Source of the DNA: Shigella phage ESh21
Length of the DNA stretch: 64,000 nucleotides
Sequence record: ON528731
Strand: one strand, 5' to 3'
In this document: piece by piece, positions 24,357-26,020 of the stretch
Position numbering within the stretch: the first letter of the stretch is position 1
How the letters are laid out: every line of letters starts with the position of its first letter
The notes under the pieces: model-generated
The model's input: the letters and a program-made list of their open reading frames with translations, nothing else
Databases searched by the model: none
What the model was told of the DNA's origin: nothing
Translations under genes and position numbers: made by a program

Positions 24357-24569
24357 ATGAAGCCTTATGGTAGACATGGTAAAGTTGAAATTGCAAGTTG
24401 TGGTTGCTGTGCTTCTCACGATGGTGAAGAAGATTACTACAAGTGGCGTACAGACCATCGTAGACGCTTTCTCAGAAGAGATAAGAAGAAAGCTAGACAG
24501 GAATCTCGAAATAATATTGCAGAATTAGTTCAAACGGATAGAGCAGCAGCCTACGAAGTTGTTTGTTAG
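24357..24569 (+). CDS. Small basic Cys-containing ORF whose 3' end overlaps tRNA-Arg
   Basis: AGGAG SD 7 nt upstream of ATG; last ~17 codons lie within the tRNA. Confidence 0.3.
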   Translation: MKPYGRHGKVEIASCGCCASHDGEEDYYKWRTDHRRRFLRRDKKKARQESRNNIAELVQTDRAAAYEVVC

Positions 24570-24595
24570 GGGTTCGAATCCCTTATTCTGCACCA
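24519..24595 (+). tRNA. tRNA-Arg (anticodon ACG)
   Basis: Acceptor GCAGAAT/ATTCTGC perfect, loop CTACGAA. Confidence 0.65.
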
Positions 24596-24614
24596 ATTAC
24601 TAGAAGGTAATTAT

Positions 24615-24842
24615 ATGCGTAAACTCATTATTGAAAAGCATAAAGATGCTGACAAGATTGAAACAACACAAGTTGGGGACACTGACTTCATTCTTGTAGG
24701 TTGGAAATGTGACCCAATAGCAGCTATGAAGGTTGTTCATGGTTTTGCAGGAATTGAATTTAATCAAATCATATTTGAAACGCTATTACCAGAAAATCAG
24801 GATACGTGTAATAACGCATATGTCCTGACAAGAGTTCGTTAG
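24615..24842 (+). CDS. Hypothetical protein inside tRNA array
   Basis: ORF between two tRNAs with plausible SD; stop overlaps start of next tRNA. Confidence 0.4.
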   Translation: MRKLIIEKHKDADKIETTQVGDTDFILVGWKCDPIAAMKVVHGFAGIEFNQIIFETLLPENQDTCNNAYVLTRVR

Positions 24843-24916
24843 GGGATTAGTTTACAAGGTTAAAACCTCGGTCTTTGAAATCGAAGAAGTTGGTTCAATT
24901 CCAACATCCCCCGCCA
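24841..24916 (+). tRNA. tRNA-Gln (anticodon UUG)
   Basis: Loop CTTTGAA, T-arm GTTGG-TTCAATT-CCAAC, D-arm GTTT/AAAC. Confidence 0.6.
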
Positions 24917-24918
24917 AT

Positions 24919-24997
24919 ACTCCATTACTCCAATTGGCAGAGAGGCCAGACTTAAAATCTGTGTTATGTATCGGTTCGAATCCGATATGGAGTACCA
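24919..24997 (+). tRNA. tRNA with anticodon UAA (Leu by anticodon), short variable arm
   Basis: Acceptor ACTCCAT/ATGGAGT perfect, loop CTTAAAA, 79 nt. Confidence 0.5.
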
Positions 24998-25003
24998 AAT
25001 ATT

Positions 25004-25079
25004 AGCAGTGTAGCATAACTGGCAATGCTCCAGCCTCTGAAGCTGAACGATTAAGGTTCAAATCCTTACGCTGCTGCCA
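25004..25079 (+). tRNA. tRNA-Gln (anticodon CUG)
   Basis: Loop CTCTGAA, T-arm TAAGG-TTCAAAT-CCTTA. Confidence 0.55.
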
Positions 25080-25110
25080 CTTCTAAGGGTTCTTACGAGA
25101 GTCCTTAAAT

Positions 25111-25187
25111 GTGGCCTTATCATAAATGGATAATGACCCATGCTGTGAACATGGTCTATACGGGTTCGATTCCCGTAGGTCACCCCA
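25111..25187 (+). tRNA. tRNA-His (anticodon GUG)
   Basis: Anticodon stem CCATG/CATGG, loop CTGTGAA, discriminator C; no encoded G-1. Confidence 0.65.
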
Positions 25188-25193
25188 ATTCAA

Positions 25194-25270
25194 TAGCTCA
25201 ATTAGCTTATATGGTTAAAGCGCGTGTCTGAAAAACATGAGAACAGGGTTCAAATCCCGATGGGCTACCA
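25194..25270 (+). tRNA. tRNA-Phe (anticodon GAA)
   Basis: Loop CTGAAAA; T-stem weak; 3' boundary uncertain. Confidence 0.5.
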
Positions 25271-25285
25271 ATTTATAGGTGCATA

Positions 25286-26020
25286 ATGAAAGAGATGACA
25301 GGACAAGGTAAAGAGATTTTCAGTCTCCTTAAATCCGGTAACGGGTTCTCTAACCCTCTTATTACTGGTGCAGCAGTTCTTGGTGGTACAGTTGCTGCTT
25401 CTCAGTCATTAGTAACTTCTATTGGTTCTGTATCAGACCCAGCTACCCAGCAAATTCTTATTGCTGCTGGCTTGACAACTGCCTTACTAAGCAGCTTTAC
25501 AACAAGCCTTGGTAGCACCACTTCAACGACAACTACTTTAACTGACTATGGACAGAAGTCTGTAGATGAGTTTTCACAACGTATGCAAGTAGCTAAAGGT
25601 TACTCTAACGTTATGGGAGCAGCAGGTGAACAAGTCGGTTGTACACCGTTTAGTGGAATCATGGGAGTTGCTACAGAGTACGGTAACAAAGCTATGGATT
25701 TGATTAATACATCCATAGACGCTGTAAATGGCGTTCTAAGCGATTTACAAGATGCGATTGATAAAGGACTAGACACTATCTCTGAACTCGCTACACAAGC
25801 TGTTACAGCGATTAATGAGGGTATGGCAAAGATTACTGCCTACGCTAATGAAGTGGCTCAGATGATTGCAGATGAAGCAGCCCTGATTGCTGACTACCTT
25901 AAAACGAATATTAACGGTTTTCTTGCTAATGTCTTACCAGATTGGTTTGATGATGCTTGTAAAACTGGTGTGATTGATACAATCGCAACTCCAGAGATGA
26001 AAGATGCTCTAAACAAATAA
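25286..26020 (+). CDS. Hypothetical protein with Ala/Gly/Ser/Thr-rich N-terminal half
   Basis: 244-aa ORF between tRNAs. Confidence 0.55.
   Translation: MKEMTGQGKEIFSLLKSGNGFSNPLITGAAVLGGTVAASQSLVTSIGSVSDPATQQILIAAGLTTALLSSFTTSLGSTTSTTTTLTDYGQKSVDEFSQRMQVAKGYSNVMGAAGEQVGCTPFSGIMGVATEYGNKAMDLINTSIDAVNGVLSDLQDAIDKGLDTISELATQAVTAINEGMAKITAYANEVAQMIADEAALIADYLKTNINGFLANVLPDWFDDACKTGVIDTIATPEMKDALNK

Follow-up and report, generated by a model that had tools for sequence, protein, structure and literature searches.

Probable small accessory genes in the tRNA array of Shigella phage ESh21, one of which reads into tRNA-Arg(ACG)

The transfer RNA (tRNA) clusters of phages are known to hold protein-coding genes, examples being segB of T4, the F-Tfl endonucleases of T5 and ORF44-49 of Felix O1 (PMC2330249, PMC3185647, PMC6409571). 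Hypothetical coding sequences (CDSs) and HNH genes are likewise documented in the tRNA clusters of mycobacteriophages. Here we consider the tRNA array of Shigella phage ESh21 (record ON528731), of which a stretch of 64,000 nucleotides (nt), called the window below, was analysed, and in particular three open reading frames, ORF1, ORF2 and ORF3, that lie between tRNA genes on the same strand (+) and each have their own ribosome-binding site. Megablast places the window in the Ounavirinae, as a Felix O1-like myophage of the Mooglevirus type, with Shigella phage ESh22 as the nearest relative in the compared stretch (~100% identity) and Citrobacter phage KMM4 at 92-98%. ARAGORN finds 25 tRNA genes within 21465-26200.

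As in the clusters of T4, T5 and Felix O1, the ORFs between the tRNAs are on the tRNA strand and are present or absent among close relatives, and in Felix O1 the homologous slots are occupied by ORF48 and ORF49, of which ORF49 is the counterpart of ORF3 in the DUF7217 family. The well-studied examples are GIY-YIG or HNH homing endonucleases, however, whereas no GIY-YIG or HNH domain was found in ORF1-3 with Pfam, PHROGs or NCBIfam. HNH genes do occur in the relatives, in other inter-tRNA slots that are empty in the window.

We consider it quite probable that ORF1-3 are genuine accessory genes occupying variable slots of the tRNA array and co-transcribed with the tRNAs, ORF1 being an allele truncated by a deletion. 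The finding is an ordinary one, the ORFs having already been deposited in relatives as hypothetical proteins, some of them drawn overlapping the tRNA; existing annotations include Moogle gp84, Mordin_86 and Silverhawkium gp86, and several GenBank records leave out ORF1 or ORF2. A preliminary description of the region had given coordinates that are all correct, as judged by ARAGORN and the ORF list, and had noted the strong AGGAG Shine-Dalgarno site of ORF1, the end of ORF1 in the 5′ half of tRNA-Arg(ACG), the end of ORF2 2 nt into tRNA-Gln and a 244-amino-acid (aa) ORF3 between tRNA-Phe and tRNA-Ser. It offered a choice between small proteins co-transcribed with the tRNAs and artefacts, and proposed that conservation of the frames in related phages would help to decide. 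That comparison favours real genes for all three ORFs, the frames being kept and under purifying selection, and speaks against artefacts, with the restriction that the tail of ORF1 shows no constraint as protein. Two points go beyond that description: the tRNA-encoded tail of ORF1 is free of constraint at the protein level, and its overlap with the tRNA looks like the by-product of an 82-nt deletion.

Evidence that the three reading frames are genes

The arrangement goes beyond chance, for all three ORFs match phage protein families along their whole length and are under purifying selection in the frame they use. The families are phrog_10765 for ORF1 (E 3e-48), phrog_14202 for ORF2 (E 9e-34) and DUF7217 for ORF3, and the matches run from end to end. 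The three ORFs start 15-19 nt past the upstream tRNA, behind Shine-Dalgarno sites at 24346, 24603 and 25276, and end at -51 to +3 nt relative to the next tRNA (Table 1). Their presence or absence in the inter-tRNA slots of close relatives is cassette-like. The slot after tRNA-Arg can be empty or can hold ORF2, two copies of ORF2, ORF2 followed by a 185-aa gene, or the 185-aa gene alone, and the ORF1 slot holds an ORF of 70, 80 or 35 aa or no ORF at all. A search of complete RefSeq E. coli genomes returned 0 match.

For ORF1 the evidence concerns its head, that is, the first 54 codons, which carry the family motif MKPYG..GK.E.A.CGCC..H...ARQ. The unique part of ORF1 is present in 41 phage records, of Mooglevirus or Suspvirus types only, at 85-100% amino-acid identity. 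Our alignment comprised 17 sequences plus 5 with a variant allele described below, and in all 22 relatives the head frame is open and the Shine-Dalgarno site and ATG are invariant; in Sf14 an in-frame deletion of 3 nt has removed exactly one codon. Variable sites of the head are distributed 4/4/15 over the codon positions, with 15 of the 23 at position 3 (binomial P = 0.0017), and the pooled ratio of nonsynonymous to synonymous variation (pN/pS) is 0.164 in its own frame as against 2.41 and 0.48 in the other two. The ratio is 0.171 when the 70-aa alleles are taken alone. A competing frame at 24367-24528 (53 aa) was rejected, having a pN/pS of 2.41 and a stop in phage HP1, and minus-strand ORFs over the region were rejected by frame arithmetic, as third positions of the ORF1 frame are their first codon positions.

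A profile-free search of 1.8 billion representative proteins, in which the 80-aa form of ORF1 was the query, returned two remote stand-alone homologues of 63 and 60 aa (P0005 and P0006; E 5.5e-7 and 3.5e-6). Both share the motif MKP[YF]G..GK.E.A.CGCC..H...ARQ with ORF1, both match phrog_10765 over profile positions 1-55 only, and they come from unrelated phage contigs, where their neighbours are other small genes and no tRNA is close by. Because stand-alone homologues of about the length of the retained head occur in other phages, the head is a self-contained unit, a small-protein family under purifying selection, and only these first 54 codons constitute a gene in the evolutionary sense. ORF1 has nothing in Pfam, NCBIfam or PADLOC. 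Three cysteines and one histidine fall within seven residues of the head and are followed by a very basic stretch, and our guess is that it may bind metal or nucleic acid. Against the weight of these tests it has to be said that they use just 23 variable sites from closely related and visibly recombining sequences, and that the pooled pairwise pN/pS values are not independent.

The same observations bear on whether ORF1 works at all, since it might have been annotated in error, or be the decaying remainder of a gene whose frame merely happens to be open as far as the tRNA, with only ORF2 and ORF3 being real. It has lost the C-terminal block KLYGVL[IV]G, which is the best-conserved part in common with a mini-ORF of Felix O1, its very narrow family numbers 4 clusters in 5.8 billion proteins, and about a quarter of GenBank records leave it unannotated. 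Two phages also lack the gene altogether: in wV8 a gap of 5 nt separates tRNA-Leu from tRNA-Arg, and Alf5 has lost tRNA-Arg too. We nevertheless find a non-functional ORF1 quite unlikely in view of the pN/pS of 0.17 among the 70-aa alleles themselves, the intact frame and Shine-Dalgarno site in every sequence read, the loss of a single whole codon in Sf14, and the existence of stand-alone homologues about as long as the head that is retained.

ORF2 has full-length homologues in 69 phage records of Mooglevirus and Felixounavirus (tblastn; 36-100% identity), with a pN/pS of 0.08-0.47 in codon alignments and the conserved motif VGW.CDP...FET.LPEN.T.NN.Y.LTR. Nothing was found for it in Pfam or NCBIfam, and its predicted structure is a small alpha/beta fold with generic matches only; a PADLOC hit to MTase_II (19.6 bits, 50 residues) was dismissed as noise. 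The last two bases of its TAG stop are the first two bases of tRNA-Gln, and wherever tRNA-Gln comes next in the relatives, the ORF2 stop overlaps it by 2-3 nt. The 2-nt overlap is simple tight packing. In HP1 and wV8 the ORF2 stop instead overlaps the ATG of the following 185-aa gene by 4 nt, the usual signature of neighbouring cistrons.

Some of the relatives (L001 1965-2515, L004 1707-2257 and L020 1789-2339) have two diverged tandem copies of ORF2, ~65% identical, with a copy of the 3′ half of tRNA-Arg(ACG) between them. The junction is at GTTAGGGG, a string common to the end of ORF2 and the variable loop and T stem of tRNA-Arg, which suggests that the cassette may have been inserted by microhomology. 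In wV8 (L025 1140-1415, EU877232) a minus-strand CDS, '52', is annotated in GenBank over a plus-strand 80-aa ORF2 homologue (1201-1443), and is probably a wrong-strand annotation.

The match of ORF3 to DUF7217 (PF23854; E 3e-82, 276.4 bits with a cut-off of 29) takes in ORF3 residues 8-242 and profile positions 2-237 of 238, and ORF3 also matches phrog_2114. Its homologues fall into 41 clusters, the most distant, at 43% identity, coming from a Yersinia phage, and it keeps its position across the Ounavirinae, in every relative read, including Felix O1 as ORF49. The AlphaFold2 model is a bundle of long helices with a predicted local distance difference test score (pLDDT) above 90 in the core, and it had no significant match in the PDB. 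The Felix O1 paper attributes gp49, by ORF number the homologue of ORF3, to a 51-kDa virion band. We have not accepted ORF3 as a structural protein, since ~25 kDa would be expected rather than 51 kDa and gp26 is missing from the virion proteins tabulated for Sf14 by mass spectrometry. The ORF3 frame continues, in most relatives, for another 21 open codons upstream, into tRNA-Phe (25207-25285, +, in the window), and such longer, tRNA-overlapping forms are annotated in ESh22, pEC-M719-6WT.1, wV8 and an older Felix O1 record. The start at 25286 in the ORF list of the window is the conserved one, behind AGGTG.

The overlap of ORF1 with tRNA-Arg(ACG) and its origin

The last 16 codons and stop of ORF1 coincide with nucleotides 1-51 of tRNA-Arg(ACG), with the T of the TAG closing the variable loop and its AG opening the T stem. 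Of these 51 bases, 8 vary among the 70-aa alleles (3/3/2 by codon position), 6 of the 8 changes being non-synonymous, and no protein-level constraint was detected in them. The tRNA, in contrast, is well kept: in 20 distinct alleles all variable stem pairs are still paired, with a compensatory change from A5-T69 to G5-C69 and an alternation of G-C, G-T and A-T at pair 52-64, and the changes in the overlapping bases track the stems and loops. The overlapping bases evolve solely as tRNA, and the tail of ORF1 is fortuitous read-through. The last 16 residues of the deposited 70-aa proteins, like positions 56-70 of phrog_10765, are translated tRNA.

The overlap is not kept in all carriers of the gene. 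A rare allele, present in Silverhawkium and five other contigs, has 82 extra bases between codon 54 of ORF1 and tRNA-Arg and encodes an 80-aa protein ending ...NIAKDFRESVLSRRDTNEELKLYGVLIG, whose TAA is 1 nt before the tRNA in all six sequences. One of the carriers, L020 (CP164854.1, 88,055 bp), is labelled as an E. coli plasmid and is a Mooglevirus-like phage genome; it also has a duplicated tRNA-Ala/tRNA-Gly pair.

That the overlap is itself an adaptation, either with a functional tRNA-encoded tail (dual coding) or with ribosomes coupling ORF1 translation to the maturation of tRNA-Arg(ACG), seems to us very unlikely. The fused 70-aa allele is admittedly far commoner (found in 40 of the 41 GenBank records, and with 80 sequences in its cluster), and overlapping stops recur in the array, given that the Felix O1 mini-ORF also ends in the tRNA and the ORF2 stop straddles the 5′ end of tRNA-Gln. 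An adaptive overlap is nonetheless difficult to reconcile with a tail that lacks protein-level constraint and changes as the tRNA structure does, or with an 80-aa allele which shows the gene working with its stop outside the tRNA. Felixounaviruses keep the same tRNA without any ORF1 head, and 16 open codons in one frame are unremarkable, the chance being ~0.4 by our own estimate.

A comparison with Felix O1 hints at the origin of the overlap. Between the same two tRNAs, Felix O1 and another 33 Felixounavirus records (34 in total) have a 114-nt spacer with GAGGAG and a 35-aa mini-ORF, MSNNSIAKKFRASYLNRRKNKVCEKLYGVLVGKQD, the stop of which is 10 nt inside tRNA-Arg. The tail of the 80-aa allele and the mini-ORF are identical at 16 of 28 residues and 62% identical in nucleotides, and eight of the identical residues are encoded by different codons. 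When the same number of substitutions was placed randomly, 16 identities were reached in 0.05% of trials (P = 0.0005). It follows that the tail segment is old and occupies a homologous site in the two genera. At the junction the 82-nt segment is flanked by TGC microhomology in the alignments (ATAT/TGC and ATAA/TGC).

The overlap is likely, then, to be a scar left when a deletion of 82 nt between the TGC microhomologies fused the head to the tRNA, rather than an evolved case of dual coding. ORF1 would accordingly be a truncated allele that has kept its 54-codon core with the CGCC motif under purifying selection, while its native last 26 codons and stop, still present in the 80-aa allele, would have been lost with the 82 nt. 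Translation would now continue for 16 codons into tRNA-Arg(ACG), until it meets a chance TAG where the variable loop and T stem join.

Several points weigh against a deletion. The direction of the change was inferred, and the head without the 82 nt is what 40 of the 41 GenBank carriers have. The six copies of the 82 nt are identical even though the ORF1 heads differ, and they look like one haplotype block recombined into two backgrounds. The coding signal of the Felix O1 mini-ORF is weak, with a pN/pS of 0.46 and frameshifts within A-runs in 2 of 11 copies. The motif TTTAGAGAGTC, carried by part of the tail segment, is also found upstream of other tRNAs, so that some of the conservation of the segment could be at the RNA level.

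The alternative order of events makes the 70-aa allele ancestral in Mooglevirus and the overlap original, the 80-aa allele having arisen later through an 82-nt insertion or recombination from a Felix-like phage. It would explain the identity of the segment in all six carriers while their heads differ at 11 of 162 sites (P = 0.003), which suggests one recently spread block, and it would fit the resemblance of the 18 nt before tRNA-Arg(ACG) to the leader of the paralogous tRNA-Arg(TCT) (12/18 identical; family D9). This order needs a precise in-frame insertion with a stop 1 nt before the tRNA, however, and a single deletion between TGC repeats is simpler. The segment is moreover homologous to the Felix O1 sequence at exactly that position, yet at only 62% identity, and is therefore not a recent import from any sequenced phage. 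We regard an ancestral 70-aa allele as rather unlikely and retain the deletion as the better account of the overlap.

Other features of the array

The coordinates of the main features are collected in Table 1. A relaxed-threshold Rfam search of 21000-26700 returned tRNAs only, and no RNA family in ORF1 or ORF2. Downstream of the array is a gene for a T4-type large terminase (26634-28250).

Table 1. Features of the ORF1-3 region and its predicted transcription signals, in window coordinates
Feature	Position	Strand	Remarks
Sigma-70-like promoter (predicted)	22801-22829	+	TTGACA-17-TATAGT; 11/12 consensus matches; consensus prediction only
tRNA-Leu(CAA)	24264-24341	+	ARAGORN, Rfam; 3′ end 15 nt before ORF1 start
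ORF1 Shine-Dalgarno site	24346-24350	+	AGGAG; 6 nt before ATG
ORF1	24357-24569	+	70 aa; ORF list
ORF1 head	24357-24518	+	54 codons; conserved core of small phage protein family phrog_10765; peptide VEIASCGCCASHDGEEDYYK
82-nt junction	24517-24521		flanking TGC microhomology (alignments)
ORF1 tail	24519-24569	+	16 codons (55-70) and TAG; nucleotides 1-51 of tRNA-Arg(ACG)
tRNA-Arg(ACG)	24519-24595	+	intact cloverleaf; ARAGORN; Rfam tRNA 58.3 bits
ORF2 Shine-Dalgarno-like site	24603-24608	+	GAAGGT; 8 nt past tRNA-Arg 3′ end
ORF2	24615-24842	+	75 aa; starts 19 nt past tRNA-Arg
tRNA-Gln(TTG)	24841-24916	+	ARAGORN, Rfam
tRNA-Phe(GAA)	25195-25270	+	ARAGORN; 15 nt upstream of ORF3
ORF3	25286-26020	+	244 aa; between tRNA-Phe and tRNA-Ser(GCT); ends 3 nt before tRNA-Ser
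tRNA-Ser(GCT)	26024-26116	+	ARAGORN; 3 nt past ORF3 stop
Hairpin then U6, likely intrinsic terminator	26234-26293	+	minimum free energy (MFE) -28.1 kcal/mol, z -5.1

A 26th tRNA at 21549-21620 (+) was missed by ARAGORN and scores 53.7 bits in Rfam; its anticodon loop CCTTCAA reads as Glu(TTC), like tRNA number two in Felix O1. The segment 23250-23338 (+), situated between tRNA-Arg(TCT) and tRNA-Ser(TGA), is a tRNA-like remnant that has an acceptor-like stem of 10 bp, the T-arm GGTTCGATTCC and CCA at its 3′ end (MFE -25.2 kcal/mol, z -2.3), and it is called by neither ARAGORN nor Rfam. The spacers at 22128-22550, 23112-23349, 23440-23686 and 24094-24187 are without a convincing ORF in the window, and in relatives the same spacers hold HNH or endonuclease VII genes (Felix O1 ORF44/45/47, mistaenkt_113, SFPB_120).

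Two short sequences recur in the spacers. The repeat CAAATTTACAGAAGACCGTTTACAGCAATTTAAA is found at 21623-21656, 21784-21817, 22188-22215 and 22270-22303 (+), two of the copies being identical. Its core CAGAAGACCNNNTNCAGCAA occurs 4 times where 0.11 would be expected, and every repeat copy belongs to the first tRNA sub-cluster. The element may serve as promoter, processing site or recombination site. The motif TTWAGAGAGTC is found at 23011-23021, 23615-23625 and 25093-25103 (+), 8-62 nt upstream of tRNA-Arg(TCT), tRNA-Leu(TAG) and tRNA-His, and both the Felix O1 mini-ORF and the 82 nt that distinguish the 80-aa allele of ORF1 contain a similar string. The motif has no genome-wide enrichment (8 hits against 4.3 expected).

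Two tRNAs of KMM4 are unusual. In the slot of Val(TAC) the anticodon is TAT through a single C-to-T change, and the tRNA in the slot of Ile(GAT) has a 1-nt deletion that gives a 4-base anticodon in ARAGORN (L001 1590-1664 and 85-159 cover both slots). Anticodon switching, decay or sequencing error could account for them.

Predicted transcription and tRNA processing, and possible consequences for the ORFs

The sigma-70-like site at 22801 agrees with the Felix O1 promoter P45 in both hexamers and in their spacing (PMC3185647), and none of 200 shuffles of the hairpin at 26234-26293 folds as well as the original. No convincing promoter or terminator signal was found between the two. The array from one to the other would form a single transcription unit of 17 tRNAs and ORF1-3, and co-transcription of the ORFs with the tRNAs is plausible from these two signals. 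The hairpin (within 26234-26306, +) sits after tRNA-Cys, and its 3′ arm overlaps a promoter-like TAGACA-17-TATACT that faces a small ORF at 26421 and the terminase gene. What weakens the case for co-transcription is that the promoter and terminator are consensus or folding predictions only, and that we found no expression data for ORF1-3 (RNA ends, ribosome profiling or proteomics) in the literature.

On such a transcript the cuts of RNase P, as its biology is known, would fall before or inside two of the stop codons. A cut at the 5′ end of tRNA-Arg would sever the ORF1 message 51 nt short of its stop, and of the ORF2 stop nothing but the first base would survive a cut at tRNA-Gln, so that full-length protein would be made from the unprocessed precursor only and the processed messages would be non-stop. 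There is no sign in the sequence that the phage exploits this arrangement.

The host operon thrU-tyrU-glyT-thrT-tufB of E. coli mixes tRNAs and mRNA, and in the tRNA punctuation of mitochondria incomplete stop codons are completed by polyadenylation. As in both of these, coding regions here abut tRNAs and tRNA processing would set the mRNA ends. With mitochondrial punctuation the likeness is one of compatible geometry only, stops completed by polyadenylation being a mitochondrial feature. It is most improbable, in our estimation, that ORF1-3 are true tRNA-punctuated cistrons, whose small mRNAs are freed by RNase P and 3′-end processing in a race with translation. If they were, the outcome of that race would determine how much protein is made, since cutting takes away the stop of ORF1 and spares no more than the U of the stop of ORF2. 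Rescue could then be by transfer-messenger RNA or, for ORF2, through a UAA regenerated by polyadenylation as in mitochondria, and translation of ORF1 into the 5′ half of tRNA-Arg(ACG) would inversely couple the yields of ORF1 protein and tRNA-Arg.

The 70-aa and 80-aa alleles of ORF1 differ only in having the stop inside or outside the tRNA and constitute a natural experiment. With this pair, the competition between translation and the processing of a tRNA on a single transcript could be measured.

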